Below are positions 13,506 to 19,488 of a stretch of DNA of 64,000 nucleotides, one piece after another. How positions within the stretch are numbered: position 1 is the stretch's first letter; each line of letters begins with the position of its first letter. The notes below the pieces were generated by a model. The model had not been told where the DNA came from. It saw only the letters and a list, made by a program, of their open reading frames with translations, and searched no databases. Source of the DNA: Gemmatimonadaceae bacterium (GTDB taxonomy: Bacteria; Gemmatimonadota; Gemmatimonadetes; Gemmatimonadales; Gemmatimonadaceae). The position numbers and the translations under genes were made by a program. The DNA lies in contig JBHYGA010000001.1 in NCBI GenBank assembly GCA_051859245.1, positions 448,001 through 512,000 on the forward strand. Direction: 5' to 3'.

Positions 13506-15470
13506 CTACCTCGGCAACGCGTACGCCACAATCTCCGCCGGCTGTCCCGCCGCCGTTGTCGCAAATACCACGTACTGCCGGCCATTGTGCAGATACGTCA
13601 TCGGCAATCCCGACTGCGTACCACTCGGCACATCAAGTCGCGCAATGCGTGCACCTGTGCGCTTGTTCAGCACCCACAAGTTGCCAGTCCCCGCCGTACC
13701 CTCACCCGCGAACAACAGCGTGCGTGTCACCAGCAAGCCCGCACGCGACGCCTTGCCGGTATTCGGGATGCTAGCCGGCGGCAGCTGCAGTCGTTCAGCG
13801 ACATACGAAGGCGTGTCACCATTCGGCACCATCCACGCGTGGTCGCCGGTGGTGAGATTGATCGCCGTAATGCGACCCCAGGGTGGCTTCACAATGGGAA
13901 CACCTGGCGCGAGCTGCCCGCGTCCGCCACCGGCGATGTAGTTCATGTCAGACGCGCGACCACCAGCCACAAGCGAGAGAAATGACGGTGCCGTCACCGA
14001 CGGCACGTACAGGTATCCCGTTTCAGGATCGAGCGCGCCGCCTTCCCAGTTGGCACCACCGAGTGCAGATGGCAATGTGATCGTGCCTTTGGTGCTGTCG
14101 GCGGCGTTCTGCAGTGAGGGCGGGGAATACAGCGGCCCCCAGCGAAACTGACTCGCGATATCCTTGGCGCGCTTGAAAATCTCCGGCGTGAAATCGAGCA
14201 GATCGGACTCACTGAATCCCTGCCGTTCAAATGGCGCGGGCTTGGTGGGGAACGGTTGCGTAGGACTGTACCATTCGCCGGGCACGTCGCCTTTGGGAAC
14301 GGGTCGTTCTTCGATCGGCCAGATCGCTTCGCCCGTCACGCGATCAAGTACAAACACAAACCCTTGCTTCGTGATCTGCGCAATGATCTTTCGTGCGCGT
14401 CCGCCAATTGTCAGATCCGCGAGAATTGGTGCGTTGGTGTTGTCCCAATCCCAGATGTCGTGGTGAATGGTCTGGAAATGCCACACACGTTTGCCGGTGC
14501 GTGCGTCGAGTGTGAGAATGCTCGTGGAGAAGAGATTGTTGCCCGGCCGGTGTCCGCCGTAGTAATCGCCTGTGGCGGCTTCGGTCGGTAGATACACATA
14601 ACCAAGCTCTGCGTCCCACGAGATCTGCGCCCACACCGCCGTGTTGCCGGTGTAAGACCACGAACTGTCGAGCCACGTGTCGTTGCCAAGCTCGCCCGGC
14701 TCCGGAATCGTGTGAAACGTCCAGAGCAATCGTCCGGTGCGCGCATCGAATCCGCGTATGTCACCGGGAATGTTCACTTTTGACGGCGGACGCAGCCCCA
14801 CGTGCAACGCTGCGCCCACCACCAACACATCACCAATCACGGCTGCGGGCGAGCTCGCACCAATGGAGCCCACCGGTGACACGCCGTCGCGCGTGCGCAG
14901 ATTCTTGTGCAGGTCGACGATCCCGTTGCTGCCAAAGCCGCTGATCACGTTGCCCGTTGCAGCGTTGAGTGCAACGAGTTGGTAGCCCGGCGTGACCACG
15001 TAAATGCGATCATCTCCTTTGCCGTCCGACCAGAACGACACACCGCGCCCCGAGTTCACGCGCGGCGCTTCGGCGATGCGCTCGCCTTCGTCAATGCGAT
15101 AGGTCCAAACTGTTTCGCCAGTAGCCGGGTCAATTGCAACTACGTTGCGCCGAGTGCCGGCGGTGGCGTACAGCATGCCGTTGGCGAAGATGGGCGTAGT
15201 CTGGCTCGCGGCGAGCGGGTTGGGACCCTGATTGCGAGCACTCCAACGCCAGGCAACCGCCAGCTTATCGGCGTTTGACGAATCAATCTGATCAAGCGAC
15301 GAGTATCGCGTGTGCCCTGCATCTCCGCCGTACACACGCCACTCGGCGCCGGTGCCTCGCTGCGCACTGGCGAGTGCCGGGAGCGCTAGCGCAGCCACCG
15401 CAAGCGCAGCCAGCGCTGCGGTCGTGCCGCGTAACGCCACGGTGGGTCGGATCGCGAACAGTCGTGCCAT
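13506..15470 (-). CDS. PQQ-dependent dehydrogenase (glucose/quinate family, soluble periplasmic type)
   Basis: Signal peptide, 'W..YGGD...TRYSSLDQI', 'WHFQTIHHDIWDWD', 'GGANWEG', 'KPPWGRITAINL', 'PMTY..NGRQYVV'. Confidence 0.93.
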   Translation of the reverse strand: MARLFAIRPTVALRGTTAALAALAVAALALPALASAQRGTGAEWRVYGGDAGHTRYSSLDQIDSSNADKLAVAWRWSARNQGPNPLAASQTTPIFANGMLYATAGTRRNVVAIDPATGETVWTYRIDEGERIAEAPRVNSGRGVSFWSDGKGDDRIYVVTPGYQLVALNAATGNVISGFGSNGIVDLHKNLRTRDGVSPVGSIGASSPAAVIGDVLVVGAALHVGLRPPSKVNIPGDIRGFDARTGRLLWTFHTIPEPGELGNDTWLDSSWSYTGNTAVWAQISWDAELGYVYLPTEAATGDYYGGHRPGNNLFSTSILTLDARTGKRVWHFQTIHHDIWDWDNTNAPILADLTIGGRARKIIAQITKQGFVFVLDRVTGEAIWPIEERPVPKGDVPGEWYSPTQPFPTKPAPFERQGFSESDLLDFTPEIFKRAKDIASQFRWGPLYSPPSLQNAADSTKGTITLPSALGGANWEGGALDPETGYLYVPSVTAPSFLSLVAGGRASDMNYIAGGGRGQLAPGVPIVKPPWGRITAINLTTGDHAWMVPNGDTPSYVAERLQLPPASIPNTGKASRAGLLVTRTLLFAGEGTAGTGNLWVLNKRTGARIARLDVPSGTQSGLPMTYLHNGRQYVVFATTAAGQPAEIVAYALPR

Positions 15471-15609
15471 CTATGTGCTCCACACGTTGTGAAGGAGTAT
15501 CGAAGCAAATCGAATGCGCCTCCAAGCTGCCGTGCGGGTGCCGGTCTCGCTAGGGAGTACCGCCCCCCCCCGTCTTCCGCTCCGCGAGCATTGGTGCAGA
15601 TTCTGCGCC

Positions 15610-16308
15610 ATGAGACACTCTCGCCAACCGTTCCCGGTCGTGACGTCACGCGGGTTATGCCGGTGGGTGCGTACGCTGTTGGTACTGACGGCCACGTTGA
15701 CACAGGCGACGACGCTGTCTGCGCAAGCGCACCAACATGCCGCCGAGCCACGATCGCGTGACGCGCAACTGGAGTTGGTACTCGGCGGTCCGCACCTGAT
15801 TCTCTATCACCGCGGTTATCTCGCACTCGGAGACGCGCAAATCACCGGGCTGCAGCGTCTGCAACGCTCAGTGTGCGACGCGGAACAGTGGTACGTGGAA
15901 GAGACCGCGAGGTGGCGCAAGCGACTCGTCGTACTGCTTGATGACACGGCGCCGCTGCCGTCGAGAGCGACGATTGATGCGACGAAGCCCACACGTCTCA
16001 ACCAAGCGATGATCGACATCGCATCCGTTGAGTCCGCGTGGCTTACCGTGTTGCTGCACGCGCGCCGTGATGCATTAGCGCTGCTCACGGTAACGCAGCG
16101 TGCGCAACTCGAACAGTTACGCAACCACTGGCTGCGCGAGTCGGTGTTGATGATCGAAGAGGCCACGCGCCCCGGACAGCGCGGTCATCCGGGGACACAG
16201 ATTCCGATTCGGGTGCCAGGAATGGTTGTGCACACCACAACATTGTTGCCGCATTGTGAATCGCTGCACGGGCCGTCTCGCCACATTGTGATTCCGCCGC
16301 CGCGCTGA
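15610..16308 (+). CDS. Hypothetical exported helical protein (possibly Spy/CpxP-like), His-rich
   Basis: Signal ending LSA-Q, then 'AHQH'; 'ILYHRGYLALGDAQI' and 'ALLTVTQRAQL' resemble LTxxQ motifs. Confidence 0.6.
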   Translation: MRHSRQPFPVVTSRGLCRWVRTLLVLTATLTQATTLSAQAHQHAAEPRSRDAQLELVLGGPHLILYHRGYLALGDAQITGLQRLQRSVCDAEQWYVEETARWRKRLVVLLDDTAPLPSRATIDATKPTRLNQAMIDIASVESAWLTVLLHARRDALALLTVTQRAQLEQLRNHWLRESVLMIEEATRPGQRGHPGTQIPIRVPGMVVHTTTLLPHCESLHGPSRHIVIPPPR

Positions 16309-16310
16309 GG

Positions 16311-16350
16311 ACGCGTTCAACACGCGTTCAACACGCGTGATGACACGCGA
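16311..16350. repeat. Short intergenic tandem repeat
   Basis: ACGCGTTCAAC x2 followed by two degenerate ACGCG units, between convergent genes. Confidence 0.6.
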
Positions 16351-16359
16351 CCAAGCGCG

Positions 16360-17208
16360 TCAATCCGTGACTTTCACCTTCACATAGCCGTTCGTCCAGC
16401 AACATTGCTGACCCAGCGCACTATCTGTAATGCCAAAGTTGTCCACGCGCACGCGCAACATGTACTCACCGGGCGCGCTGAATCGTACGGACGTTGTCGC
16501 GTCGCCGCCGCCTGGTGCCGTCTTCGCAGTTTTCGGCGCAAACGTGACATCGCCAGGCCCCTGATGTTTGAACCACGACATGTTCACAGGAATCGGTTTA
16601 CGCTCGCCGCGATCTTCCATCCAGATGCGAATATCGAGCGCTGCACCGACGGCCACAGTGAGCGGACCAGTGATCACGCCCTCGCGACCCTCTGATGCGG
16701 GGCCGTCTGCTGCAAACCGCACCACCGGCATCATTGATCCGGCCGCCTGCGGCGTGTACGACAGCTTGTAGTAGTCACTCGTGGCGCGCCCCGGCACGGA
16801 GTATGTCACACCGTTATGCCGCAGCGTCCACACCACATCGCTTTTGTGTCCCTTGGGCACTCTCACCGCAAACGCGCCGCGCTCGCGTTTACCGCCGAAC
16901 GCGGAGTAGCTCACCACCGGGAAGTGTGTGGGTTGTAATCCCCCAAACTGCGCCGGCTCGATGCTGTTATCGGGCCCGATCGGTATGTCTATAGCGCCAC
17001 TGCGATTGCGGTTCATGAATCCGAACGACAGCGTGATGCTTCCATCGGGATTCGCGTACCAACCATCAAAGTACGGTGCGACGCCGGCGCCCGCGGGTGC
17101 GCTCGGCCCAAGCGGCAATCGCTCGCTCTGTTGCGCGGCGAGCGGCACTGCGATGGGCGCAGCGCTTGAGACAAACGTGCACAGCGCAACGATGGCGCGC
17201 AGTCTCAC
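16360..17208 (-). CDS. Exported hypothetical protein with C-terminal PKD/Ig-like domain and vicinal Cys pair
   Basis: Signal peptide; 'PYFDGWYANPDGS', 'QPTHF', 'WFKHQGPGDVTF', 'FSAPGEYMLRV', 'QCCWTN'. GTGA overlap with the upstream gene. Confidence 0.8.
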   Translation of the reverse strand: MRLRAIVALCTFVSSAAPIAVPLAAQQSERLPLGPSAPAGAGVAPYFDGWYANPDGSITLSFGFMNRNRSGAIDIPIGPDNSIEPAQFGGLQPTHFPVVSYSAFGGKRERGAFAVRVPKGHKSDVVWTLRHNGVTYSVPGRATSDYYKLSYTPQAAGSMMPVVRFAADGPASEGREGVITGPLTVAVGAALDIRIWMEDRGERKPIPVNMSWFKHQGPGDVTFAPKTAKTAPGGGDATTSVRFSAPGEYMLRVRVDNFGITDSALGQQCCWTNGYVKVKVTD

Positions 17209-18587
17209 CTTTTCGCCCGCTTCGCGAGCAACTGCTGATACGCCGCTTCATCCAGCTGCGTCACCGCAATCCACGCGTGACTCATCTCGTCTGTGGTCCG
17301 ATCACCCATGCCCACCCATTGGTCCGGGTCCGGATTGAAGATGTTTTTCGATGTGTTGTCGTACCACGCGGTGTTGATGATCACGGATCCTGCGGGCAGC
17401 AGCGGCGCGGCGGACTCCTGATACACGTGACTATGGTGCCAGCCGGGATTCCAGTTCGACACCATGCTGAGCGTCTCGCGACGGCCGTCGGGATACAGTA
17501 CTTCCAGCCGTTTTGCGACGAGACGCAAATGCCCGTGCGGTTGCCACGAGTCAATGCGCACGGGTGTGTTGAATCGATGAAATCCTTGCGTTACCAGCTT
17601 GCCATTCGGTTCGATTTCAAAGTCTCCCGATCCGCTCTGCAAGGCGTAGAGGCCGAGCGTTTGACGATGACGTGTTTGCGGCGTGACCTCGGGCCCGTGG
17701 AACCAGATGCCGATTTCGAGTTGGTCGTCGACGATTTCTTTCCCATTCGGGAAGTAATGAATGTCGAACAACACGTTCGATCCGGCGGGCGCAATTCGAC
17801 ACGCATCGGCCGGCACCACTTCACCAATCTTTCCAAGCGCGTATTCAGAGAGTCGCACGCTTCCCGGACCACCGCCACCTACTGCGTCTGGTTCGGCGTC
17901 TGATGTGCCAGGCACGAAAATAGAATTCGCGTGATGCGTGACCGAACGTCCGGCGACACTCGGGCGCGTCTCTACCGCTTTGATGCATCGATCGTTGGTG
18001 ATGCCACTCGGCACGGATGGCCTCCACCAACGATCCTGACCACTTGCCGGCACGGTGTACTTCGATGCCTTCACAATCAGATCGGGCGGGCCGTATGTAG
18101 CGGCTAGGCGATACGCTGACGGATCGGGCAGCGTTGGCGCCGGTGGCATGTCGGCCGGATTACCTTCGGGCATGCCGGCGTCCACCCACTGCACAATCGT
18201 GGCGATGTCGCGCTCCGAAAGACGCCAGTCGTGCTGCAGCTGCTGAATGCCAATGTGCGCGTCGTACTGATACGGCGGCATCTCGCGTGACTGCACCATC
18301 TGCTTGATGAGCGGACCGTCACGCCGAACGTGCTGATACGTGAGCAGCGACATCGGACCGATGCCGCCTGGCGAGTGACAGTTCTGACAGTTCTTTTGAA
18401 TGATCGGCGCAACGTCACGCGAGAAGTTGACGGCGGTCGTGTCCACGACGCGCGGAGCGATGTGAGGAGACTCGCGCAACGCACCAGCGGCGGGTGTGAC
18501 CCGAAGTGCCGCGGTCAGAACAACGGCTGTTGCGCATGAGACAGCGAGTGAGAGACGCCAACGTCGCGTGCTGGTGGGTTGCATCAC
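17205..18587 (-). CDS. Cytochrome c / copper type II (PHM/DBH-like) monooxygenase fusion
   Basis: CQNCH heme motif (aa 67-71) plus 'EMPP'; Cu ligands 'THHAN', 'DIHYF', 'PHGHL', 'DEMSH'. Confidence 0.85.
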   Translation of the reverse strand: MMQPTSTRRWRLSLAVSCATAVVLTAALRVTPAAGALRESPHIAPRVVDTTAVNFSRDVAPIIQKNCQNCHSPGGIGPMSLLTYQHVRRDGPLIKQMVQSREMPPYQYDAHIGIQQLQHDWRLSERDIATIVQWVDAGMPEGNPADMPPAPTLPDPSAYRLAATYGPPDLIVKASKYTVPASGQDRWWRPSVPSGITNDRCIKAVETRPSVAGRSVTHHANSIFVPGTSDAEPDAVGGGGPGSVRLSEYALGKIGEVVPADACRIAPAGSNVLFDIHYFPNGKEIVDDQLEIGIWFHGPEVTPQTRHRQTLGLYALQSGSGDFEIEPNGKLVTQGFHRFNTPVRIDSWQPHGHLRLVAKRLEVLYPDGRRETLSMVSNWNPGWHHSHVYQESAAPLLPAGSVIINTAWYDNTSKNIFNPDPDQWVGMGDRTTDEMSHAWIAVTQLDEAAYQQLLAKRAKR

Positions 18588-18670: not shown

Positions 18671-18712
18671 GGCGCCAGCACCCCCGCCGCTTGAGCAAGG
18701 GGTGCTGGCGCC
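18671..18712 (-). terminator. GC-rich hairpin downstream of the PEP-CTERM gene
   Basis: 14-bp stem GGCGCCAGCACCCC/GGGGTGCTGGCGCC; the U-tract is short and offset. Confidence 0.5.
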
Positions 18713-18732: not shown

Positions 18733-19488
18733 TTAGCAGCAGCGGCGACGCCGAGTGGTCACCAGCAATCCCATCAGGCCCAGGCCGAGCAGCGCGAAGG
18801 ACTTCGGCTCCGGAACGGACACGCCGGGGTCGCCGCCGCCCGGACCCTCGCCGTCGCCCGGCTCTTCACCATCTCCCGGCAGCCCCTCACCAAGGTAGGT
18901 GAAGGTTGCGCTCTTTCCGCCGAAGCACGCACCGTCAAACAAATAGTTGGCGTCCACGCCACAGGCCTGCGTGGAATACGGCTCGGTCCAGTCGTCCGAG
19001 TAGAAGTGCGTAGCGATCCACAGTGGCCGCGTCCAGCCGGCATCGAGAAACAGGCCATTGCCTTTGGCGTTGCGATAGTCGAACAGTAGACCCGTCAGCT
19101 GCCCGGCACCGTTGGACGTGTAAAAGCCCGCCAACAACTCGGCGCCCGATGCAATGGACCATTGCTGCTGACCGATCTGAATGTCGAAGCCGAGCAAATC
19201 GTCGAGCGTGAACTGTTTGAGACTGGCGTGTGGCAGCAGGCCGTTTTTGAAGGTCAGCATGGCCGAGAATGTTTTGCCGAGCACGTCGGCTTTGTCGTAG
19301 TACTCGTTGAAGAGCGGCACGACCGTGTCCTGCTCTGCGTCCAGAAAATACGGCTGAATTGGCAGACGGCTGCCCGCGTACAGCGTGAGCAGATCGATCT
19401 GATAGGACGGTTGCGCAGACGCGACAGTTGGCGCGATGGCGCCCGCGCTGAATGCCGCGCAGGCGAGAGCGATGAGAAGACGACGCAT
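18733..19488 (-). CDS. PEP-CTERM sorting domain protein
   Basis: Signal peptide; G/P/D/E linker; 'VPEPKSFALLGLGLMGLLVTTRRRRCC'; GAGGA RBS. Confidence 0.92.
   Translation of the reverse strand: MRRLLIALACAAFSAGAIAPTVASAQPSYQIDLLTLYAGSRLPIQPYFLDAEQDTVVPLFNEYYDKADVLGKTFSAMLTFKNGLLPHASLKQFTLDDLLGFDIQIGQQQWSIASGAELLAGFYTSNGAGQLTGLLFDYRNAKGNGLFLDAGWTRPLWIATHFYSDDWTEPYSTQACGVDANYLFDGACFGGKSATFTYLGEGLPGDGEEPGDGEGPGGGDPGVSVPEPKSFALLGLGLMGLLVTTRRRRCC

Follow-up and report, generated by a model that had tools for sequence, protein, structure and literature searches.

The window analysed here is a stretch of 64,000 nucleotides from a Gemmatimonadaceae bacterium (contig JBHYGA010000001.1, positions 448,001 to 512,000). 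Its minus strand harbors two overlapping genes, ORF1 and ORF2, which are the subject of this study. ORF1 (17205..18587) encodes a protein with a heme c domain and a two-copper core of the type known from dopamine beta-hydroxylase (DBH) and peptidylglycine alpha-hydroxylating monooxygenase (PHM), the animal copper enzymes making noradrenaline and amidated hormones, of which it is a bacterial relative. ORF2 (16360..17208) encodes a protein of 282 amino acids (aa) with two beta-sandwich domains, referred to as the partner. Both products carry a predicted export signal. Our results describe the two genes as a real two-gene system of the PHM/DBH copper monooxygenase kind, equipped with a heme of its own and, most likely, a dedicated second subunit.

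Gene products of ORF1 and ORF2

The assignment of ORF1 is based on its reading frame, a structural model and profile searches. The frame extends from a GTG at 18587 to the stop at 17205 and comprises 460 aa. The codon after this GTG is an ATG (18584) with the sequence GAGG 6 nt ahead of it, and a length of 459 aa, common among the close homologues, is therefore likelier for ORF1. All residue numbers given here count from the GTG, i.e. they refer to the 460-aa version. The N-terminal hydrophobic segment of ORF1 scores 2.4 (Kyte-Doolittle, window 11), and such a segment is present in 115 of the 116 homologues starting with Met. The export signals of both proteins were judged by this hydropathy heuristic and not by a signal-peptide predictor. 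A preliminary description of this DNA had listed the 460-aa frame, an export signal, a CQNCH site, a Met in the sequence EMPP, and HH, H, HxH and M motifs; all of these were recovered, the motifs in that order and behind a hydrophobic N-terminus.

The cytochrome c domain covers approximately residues 52-140 (18168..18434). It is helical in the model, and all 100 ORF1 homologues searched match PF13442 weakly. The heme attachment motif CxxCH (C67-Q-N-C70-H71; 18375..18389) is followed by M103 in the MPP motif (18279..18281), the predicted distal heme ligand, and both are kept in 150/150 homologues. A distal Met as heme ligand is the pattern of class I cytochrome c, and by this analogy M103 would ligate the heme of ORF1. 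The further features of this class, a helical domain, predicted export and maturation genes in the host, were also found, the genome containing cytochrome c assembly genes. Thus, the monooxygenase does have a heme c domain of its own, as had been proposed.

The PHM-like catalytic core spans approximately residues 165-450 (17238..18095), delimited by structural alignment to residues 55-328 of PHM. Profile alignment to rat PHM places H218-H219 (17931..17936) at H107/H108 and H277 (17757..17759) at H172, the three ligands of the copper site CuH, and H351-G-H353 (17529..17537) at H242/H244 of the site CuM. This profile alignment ends ahead of the Met ligand; the equivalence of M435 with M314 of PHM, and of H437 with N316 (17277..17285 for both), is taken from the register of the structural ranges. 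Directly ahead of H351-x-H353, Q349 occupies the position of R240. All six copper ligands are kept in 150/150 homologues.

These 150 enzymes are the full-length sequences from the loci L001-L136 and the window, after removal of 4 of 154 profile hits as cut or partial. Every one of them has the same ten residues as heme and copper ligands, and these also fall within the 23 invariant columns of 27 divergent members (27-57% identity to ORF1), which argues against a chance assembly of motifs and contradicts the possibility, raised beforehand, that homologues lack the His and Met residues. The family is large, as at least 3496 of the 8000 candidates scored were hits, and the closest named relatives of ORF1 belong to the Gemmatimonadota.

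ORF2 starts with a GTG at 17208 and stops at 16360. Its start overlaps the TGA of ORF1 as GTGA, an arrangement already described and confirmed by the coordinates 17205 and 17208. ORF2 begins with a hydrophobic segment, as do 102 of 107 Met-starting homologues. The model of ORF2 (pLDDT 92.3) consists of two beta-sandwiches. The N-terminal beta domain, approximately residues 43-147 (16768..17082), holds most of the residues conserved in all partner classes, mainly Gly, Pro, Asn, Arg and aromatics; the conserved columns contain neither His nor Met. The C-terminal domain (approximately residues 156-282; 16363..16743) is Ig/PKD-like, as previously suggested: PF00801, the Pfam PKD family, is matched by 43/95 homologues at E<=0.1, with ORF2 itself under the Pfam cut-off, and the fold comparison with Ig/PKD sandwiches yields Z 8-11. 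A loop ahead of the last strand ends in C269-C270-W271 (16396..16440) and is deleted in a Cys-less partner class. The protein had been described as ending in QCCWTN; it runs nine residues further and forms one more beta-strand after C269-C270-W271.

Fold searches with ORF2 returned generic Ig sandwiches only and no enzyme fold. No DOMON match was obtained in a fold search that was dominated by the C-terminal domain and barely covered residues before 152. The partner family comprises 762 hits and 268 representatives at E<=1e-30, the latter including some long repeat proteins that match the PKD part only. No plasmid match was found for the partner. In addition, the partner occurs fused to an amidohydrolase (P0393, 3 members) or to two cupin domains (P0304, 1 member).

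Relationship to PHM and DBH

PHM and DBH are non-coupled binuclear copper monooxygenases whose two copper sites lie about 11 A apart across a cleft and which hydroxylate C-H bonds with the help of O2 and a reductant. The metal-free AlphaFold2 model of ORF1 (alignment of 100 sequences, mean pLDDT 84.7) shows a helical part at approximately residues 52-140 and two beta-sandwiches. In a Foldseek search with this model, human DBH ranked top (E 5e-11) and PHM entries came next. Structural realignment gave Z 20.3 on DBH with a root mean square deviation of 3.5 A over 268 residues, and Z 16-19 over about 255 residues for the superposition of residues 165-450 on PHM 55-328, which had been proposed as a check; the next family reached Z 8.6. 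At the sequence level, a profile of 27 diverse members reaches rat PHM with E 4e-5 and has HH, H and HxH in register. The PHM/DBH-type core with six copper ligands, claimed from the motifs alone in the preliminary description, is upheld by fold match, profile alignment and conservation, and ORF1 almost certainly carries a PHM-type two-copper site. It probably also inserts oxygen, i.e. acts as a monooxygenase.

Neither ORF1 nor ORF2 has a match above the curated Pfam/NCBIfam cut-offs or a sequence hit in PDB, NCBIfam has no model for the enzyme family, single-sequence and close-profile searches of PDB found no copper monooxygenase for ORF1, and the Atlas search returned clusters without names only. 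In the suggested search with domain models, the cytochrome c and Cu2_monoox_C (PF03712) models match homologues weakly, the latter in 21/100 close and 8/27 diverse ones with a best E of 1.4e-6, and on ORF1 itself neither PF01082 (Cu2_monooxygen) nor PF03712 gives a match at E<=1.

In PHM, the peptide carboxylate is held by Arg240, aided by Tyr318 and Asn316 (PMC12164859). The corresponding positions of Arg240, Asn316 and Tyr318 in ORF1 are Q349, H437 and W439, and Arg at position 349 occurs in only 3/92 enzymes of the ORF1 clade. Judged from these residues, ORF1 is of PHM/DBH-type build, yet not a PHM. Peptidyl-glycine, formerly put forward as a substrate to be screened, appears unlikely as a substrate of ORF1 because the peptide-binding residues of PHM are replaced.

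Pairing, cysteines and gene neighbourhood

The partner is a nearly constant companion of the enzyme. Among 75 enzyme-seeded loci from GTDB, 72 contain the partner, whole or in part, and of those without it, L074 stops 330 nt past the enzyme. A phylum sample of 151 genomes, not seeded by similarity, contained 44 partner matches in 24 genomes. Every one of these has an enzyme gene as same-strand neighbour at no more than 600 nt, with the partner behind the enzyme in 24 cases and in front of it in 20, and the enzyme matches, counted above 200 bits, number 44 as well. Weaker enzyme paralogues in this sample, such as that of locus L076 in the window genome, have no partner. In 68 of 80 partner-seeded metagenome loci the two genes are paired within 700 nt; of the other loci, 10 were counted as contig-edge cases, and in 2 the enzyme gene is found at a distance of about 1 kb. 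In a second phylum, the Acidobacteriota, the partner occurs in 12/151 genomes, the remaining ones being genomes in which these searches found none. Four of the twelve have at least 16 matches, and a deeper search of one (G151) gave 18. Even in genomes with 16 or more copies, every paralogue has retained a partner of its own. Consequently, the neighbourhood survey contradicts a lack of co-occurrence and bears out the dedicated partner.

Natural fusions exist in both orders, with partner then enzyme in P0394 and enzyme then partner in P0395, and both retain all ligands and the Cys-Cys pair. No hydrophobic stretch resembling a signal is present in their linkers (hydropathy 1.1 and -0.2, compared with 2.2-2.4 at real N-termini), for which reason they are likely real fusions rather than simple read-throughs. 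Since pairing and fusion both occur in either order and each paralogue has one partner, enzyme and partner are likely subunits of one exported complex, and a stable complex is probable. The paired enzymes also share a mark of their own: R430 is present in 125/125, and a FastTree analysis unites them in one branch (support 100), separate from the unpaired outgroup. The tree comprises 77 of the 150 enzymes, thinned at 72% identity and with tails removed.

Several observations on copy number and gene order accompany these data. Four Acidobacteriota genomes (G151, G197, G224, G260) have at least 16 partner genes, and nearly all of those fetched adjoin their own enzyme. Tandem enzyme-partner-enzyme-partner arrays are found in L016, L020, L021, L036, L048 and L051, mostly in Longimicrobiales-type genomes, with a methyltransferase-like gene on one side and a VWA (Bat-like) operon on the other. 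The window genome encodes a second heme c/copper monooxygenase without partner (L076:4916-6319; G000:C1:345915-347318), which is 27% identical to ORF1 and whose gene sits directly behind a glyoxalase-family gene. The unpaired paralogues L083, L084, L085 and L088 have C-terminal TPR-like extensions. No redoxin emerged as a general partner: the 16 genes scanned next to 10 unpaired enzymes include a single peroxiredoxin-like one, on the opposite strand.

The vicinal cysteines of ORF2 had been regarded as the defining feature of the partner, a view that does not hold, since the loop is deleted in 33/125 pairs. Classified by dithiol, the 150 enzymes comprise 92 that lack a CxxC tail and whose partner carries Cys-Cys, 20 that carry a C-terminal GCxxC tail beside a Cys-less partner, and 13 that show neither feature, whereas the two never occur together; one enzyme has a cut partner and 24 lack a full partner nearby, 14 of them outgroup enzymes and the others mostly from cut or broken loci. 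These class counts are not frequencies, the Cys-less loci having been fetched deliberately. Cys-less partners have lost the loop entirely, about 13 residues, and many contain no Cys whatsoever. Cys-Cys-Trp is present in every full-length partner of the ORF2 clade. GCxxC-tailed enzymes were observed in L077-L081, L098, L102, L103, L120-L124, L127, L130 and L131, and most enzymes of the Cys-less class have an internal Cys pair right after HxH, probably a structural disulfide.

In the tree, the Cys-Cys class and the tail class each form a single branch (support 99 and 100, respectively). With only two changes required, the dithiol is, on the sequences compared, a clade feature that arose twice at different places. 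A proven compensatory swap between Cys-Cys and CxxC tail was considered and rejected, each state being confined to one clade and 13 pairs having neither; their complementary distribution carries no statistical significance. On the enzyme side, H437 is present in 92/92 enzymes with a Cys-Cys partner and in 0/33 without, and E248, K253 and Q349 follow Cys-Cys nearly exactly. As Q349 and H437 occupy substrate-binding positions of PHM, the loop may sit on the CuM side of the cleft, which is to be taken as a lead only. A redox role of the cysteines is conceivable, with chances somewhat below even.

No constant third gene stands beside the pair in the loci surveyed. The commonest neighbours are propellers of the pyrroloquinoline quinone (PQQ) type, found in 19/75 enzyme-seeded and 14/80 partner-seeded loci; within 3 kb, such a gene accompanies 8/44 pairs, where 0.4 would be expected from copy number and genome size. 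The window genome has two PQQ-type genes, one of them beside ORF1 and ORF2. This gene (13506..15470, minus strand), identified by library match, lies about 0.9 kb downstream and, by the neighbourhood counts, is loosely linked to the pair; its product is possibly an electron source and not a fixed part of the system. It contains no cysteine and stays under the cut-offs of TIGR03074, TIGR03075 and TIGR04528. Between partner and dehydrogenase, a plus-strand ORF (15514-16308) shows a weak LTXXQ (Spy/CpxP-like) match, and short ACGCG-containing repeats (16309-16355) lie between the converging stops of ORF2 and this opposite-strand ORF. Upstream, a perfect 14-bp GC-rich inverted repeat (18671-18712) between ORF1 and a PEP-CTERM gene (18733-19488, minus strand) is possibly a terminator without U tail. 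A search for sigma-70 promoter or terminator signals gave none above chance.

A member of the family is found in a cultured organism, Gemmatimonas phototrophica, whose protein AMW06397.1 belongs to a cluster 82% identical to ORF1, and the system is therefore experimentally testable. In this species, GEMMAAP_RS19655 (cytochrome c, 1401 nt), RS19660, RS19665 on the opposite strand and RS19670 (PQQ dehydrogenase) are listed in PMC9862903. They repeat the gene order of the window, with the hypothetical gene RS19665 in place of ORF 15514-16308, and are likely orthologous to the window genes, being equated by length, label and order and not by sequence. According to the same source, all four are transcribed, with log counts per million of 5.7, 5.0, 4.1 and 4.8 in this order. 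At 24 h the enzyme gene is slightly up (log2 0.4-0.6), as is that of the dehydrogenase (log2 0.4-0.7 for both taken together; false discovery rate (FDR) <0.04). Added calcium caused no significant change in any of the four genes (PMC9862903).

Proposed function and comparison with known systems

We propose that the pair is an exported two-subunit PHM/DBH-type monooxygenase in which the cytochrome c replaces ascorbate and the Ig-fold partner serves as second subunit, a reading to which we give slightly better than even chances. Export and heme attachment would come first. The heme would then be reduced by a donor in the periplasm, for which the neighbouring PQQ-type dehydrogenase is a possible candidate in some lineages, and the heme is predicted to pass electrons to CuH and CuM in place of ascorbate, this direction being our inference. 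CuM would bind O2 and hydroxylate the substrate, a small organic or peptide-like compound other than a C-terminal glycine, at a C-H bond. The partner may steady the two copper domains and help to form or cap the substrate cleft. In the ORF1 clade, the Cys-Cys loop would be placed close to H437 at the cleft and be an accessory dithiol/disulfide rather than an essential cofactor, acting as donor of the second electron or of a hydrogen atom, or as a rigid lid. Divergent paralogues within a genome may serve different substrates. Ascorbate has been proposed to donate a hydrogen atom to the Cu-superoxo species and to trigger domain closure (PMC12164859). By analogy, a tethered dithiol could fill an ascorbate-like role, with 13 pairs doing without one.

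Several points weigh against this proposal. The enzymes L019 and L049 of the ORF1 clade have no adjacent partner, and fusions are rare: the 8000 candidates scored included 2 such clusters, having 1 and 2 full-length members. Of 125 pairs, 33 are without the Cys-Cys loop, 13 of which lack the CxxC tail too, and the link between Cys-Cys and H437 counts as one event and not as a statistic because both are confined to one clade. The PQQ link covers a minority of the pairs, its eight cases come from related genomes with about four arrangements, and clustering of exported enzymes may explain it. Furthermore, a search for the pqqC/TenA family (PF03070, controls positive) found no gene in the 99.9% complete window genome or in four family members; with TIGR02111, the controls themselves were silent. 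By the PF03070 result, PQQ would therefore have to be scavenged. Finally, the partner gene of G. phototrophica was not up at 24 h (log2 -0.35 to -0.07, FDR>0.05; PMC9862903). The genes are live, and these data give no sign of tight co-regulation of enzyme and partner.

Conserved ligands prove metal sites and not a reaction, which leaves room for a different chemistry at the same copper pair: oxidation of a substrate, or handling of nitrite, NO or peroxide, without oxygen insertion and with the heme exchanging electrons with the respiratory chain in either direction. Nitrite and azide have been bound in PHM crystals, according to entry titles, and some copper nitrite reductases carry a fused heme c. 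We nevertheless regard this as unlikely, since the exact His3 and His2Met set is kept in 150/150 enzymes and no denitrification gene is among the recurring neighbours scanned; in addition, the characterised enzymes found with this set are monooxygenases (PMC12164859). An actual bacterial PHM, hydroxylating C-terminal glycine for a PAL-like NHL propeller to finish peptide amidation, would fit the NHL-repeat genes in 8/75 and 4/80 loci and the peptidases recurring near the pairs (M28 in 9/75 loci). This explanation is very improbable in view of the Gln (Arg in 3/92), Trp and His at the positions of Arg240, Tyr318 and Asn316, whose roles in PHM are taken from PMC12164859, and no NHL gene stands beside the window pair, the two NHL homologues of the genome being more than 300 kb away.

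The other alternatives concern the partner. It might be the substrate, its Cys-Cys-Trp being oxidised to tryptophylquinone or oxidised cysteine, as by MauG-like maturases, so that the partner would become the working catalyst. The presence of this motif in every full-length partner of the clade agrees with such a role, as do the clade-special enzyme residues Q349 and H437 at substrate-binding positions of PHM, and one-to-one pairing and fusion suit a dedicated substrate just as well. However, the 33 loop-less pairs, most of them also without the Trp, have kept both enzyme and pairing, and the partner fold resembles no enzyme, which renders the idea improbable. Low probability is likewise given to a transient assembly factor for copper loading or thiol reduction instead of a subunit. 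A vicinal dithiol can bind Cu(I), and the enzymes bearing a CxxC tail (20 pairs) all have partners without Cys-Cys, the two features occurring together in 0/125. Against this stand the partner's lack of conserved His or Met, many partners without any Cys, the 13 pairs with neither dithiol, the 14 sampled outgroup enzymes with no such partner adjoining, and the retention of a separate partner per paralogue at 16 or more copies per genome. With no conserved His or Met in the partner, copper loading, one of the jobs once suggested for it, is not borne out as its general role.

A far-reaching version of the proposed two-subunit monooxygenase, which we consider doubtful, would see self-sufficient heterodimeric PHM-type enzymes widespread in bacteria, with a heme wire and a cleft dithiol replacing ascorbate, as a periplasmic counterpart of P450s. 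If true, quinoprotein dehydrogenases would feed the heme wire in some lineages, and the dithiol would have arisen twice, as the Cys-Cys loop of the partner and as the CxxC tail of the enzyme. These overlooked enzymes would oxidise dissolved organic matter, with at least 16 paralogous pairs in some Acidobacteriota genomes. In its boldest form, the enzyme would turn the Cys-Cys-Trp loop into a new protein-derived cofactor.

A literature search, with subscription journals mostly outside it, found no work on bacterial PHM homologues with a fused heme c or on the partner, nor on stand-alone proteins combining cytochrome c and Cu2_monoox_C. A bacterial enzyme with the PHM ligand set has reportedly been described. 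For this reason, the novelty is limited to heme fusion and partner and does not extend to bacterial origin. Bacterial amidation by iron enzymes is the subject of PMC12912966, where PHM is named as analogy only. The enzyme family is large, expanded in some Gemmatimonadota and Acidobacteriota, and unnamed in the curated libraries searched. In PHM and DBH, electron transfer across the copper-copper gap and the further role of ascorbate are still debated, including open versus closed conformers (PMC12164859). A built-in heme would make these steps accessible to optical measurement and offer a natural experiment on the reductant, and the family could yield ascorbate-free copper C-H hydroxylases.

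Compared with known systems, some copper nitrite reductases have a tethered heme c that feeds a copper site, and PQQ methanol dehydrogenase has a vicinal disulfide beside its redox centre; both have other folds and cofactors and serve as analogy only. Stand-alone bacterial cytochrome c and Cu2_monoox_C proteins, which include the L076 paralogue and of which one Atlas cluster holds 2068 members (PF03712 in 14%), share the domain order and all ten ligands with ORF1. They differ in having no partner gene and, in some cases, TPR tails, and R430 and M79 are mostly absent. PHM (PDB 1PHM, 1OPM, 1SDW) is likewise secreted and shares the two-beta-sandwich core and the aligned copper ligands at about 11% identity. 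In contrast to PHM, the bacterial ORF1 has a fused heme c and a separate Ig-fold partner, substitutions at Arg240, Asn316 and Tyr318, and no PAL domain. DBH (PDB 4ZEL) is the best structural match (Z 20.3), with the same ligand set and 14-16% identity. Its catalytic core operates alongside a DOMON and a dimerisation domain (PMC12164859), whereas ORF1 has heme c where DBH has DOMON, and the accessory beta-sandwiches of the window pair are encoded by a second gene.

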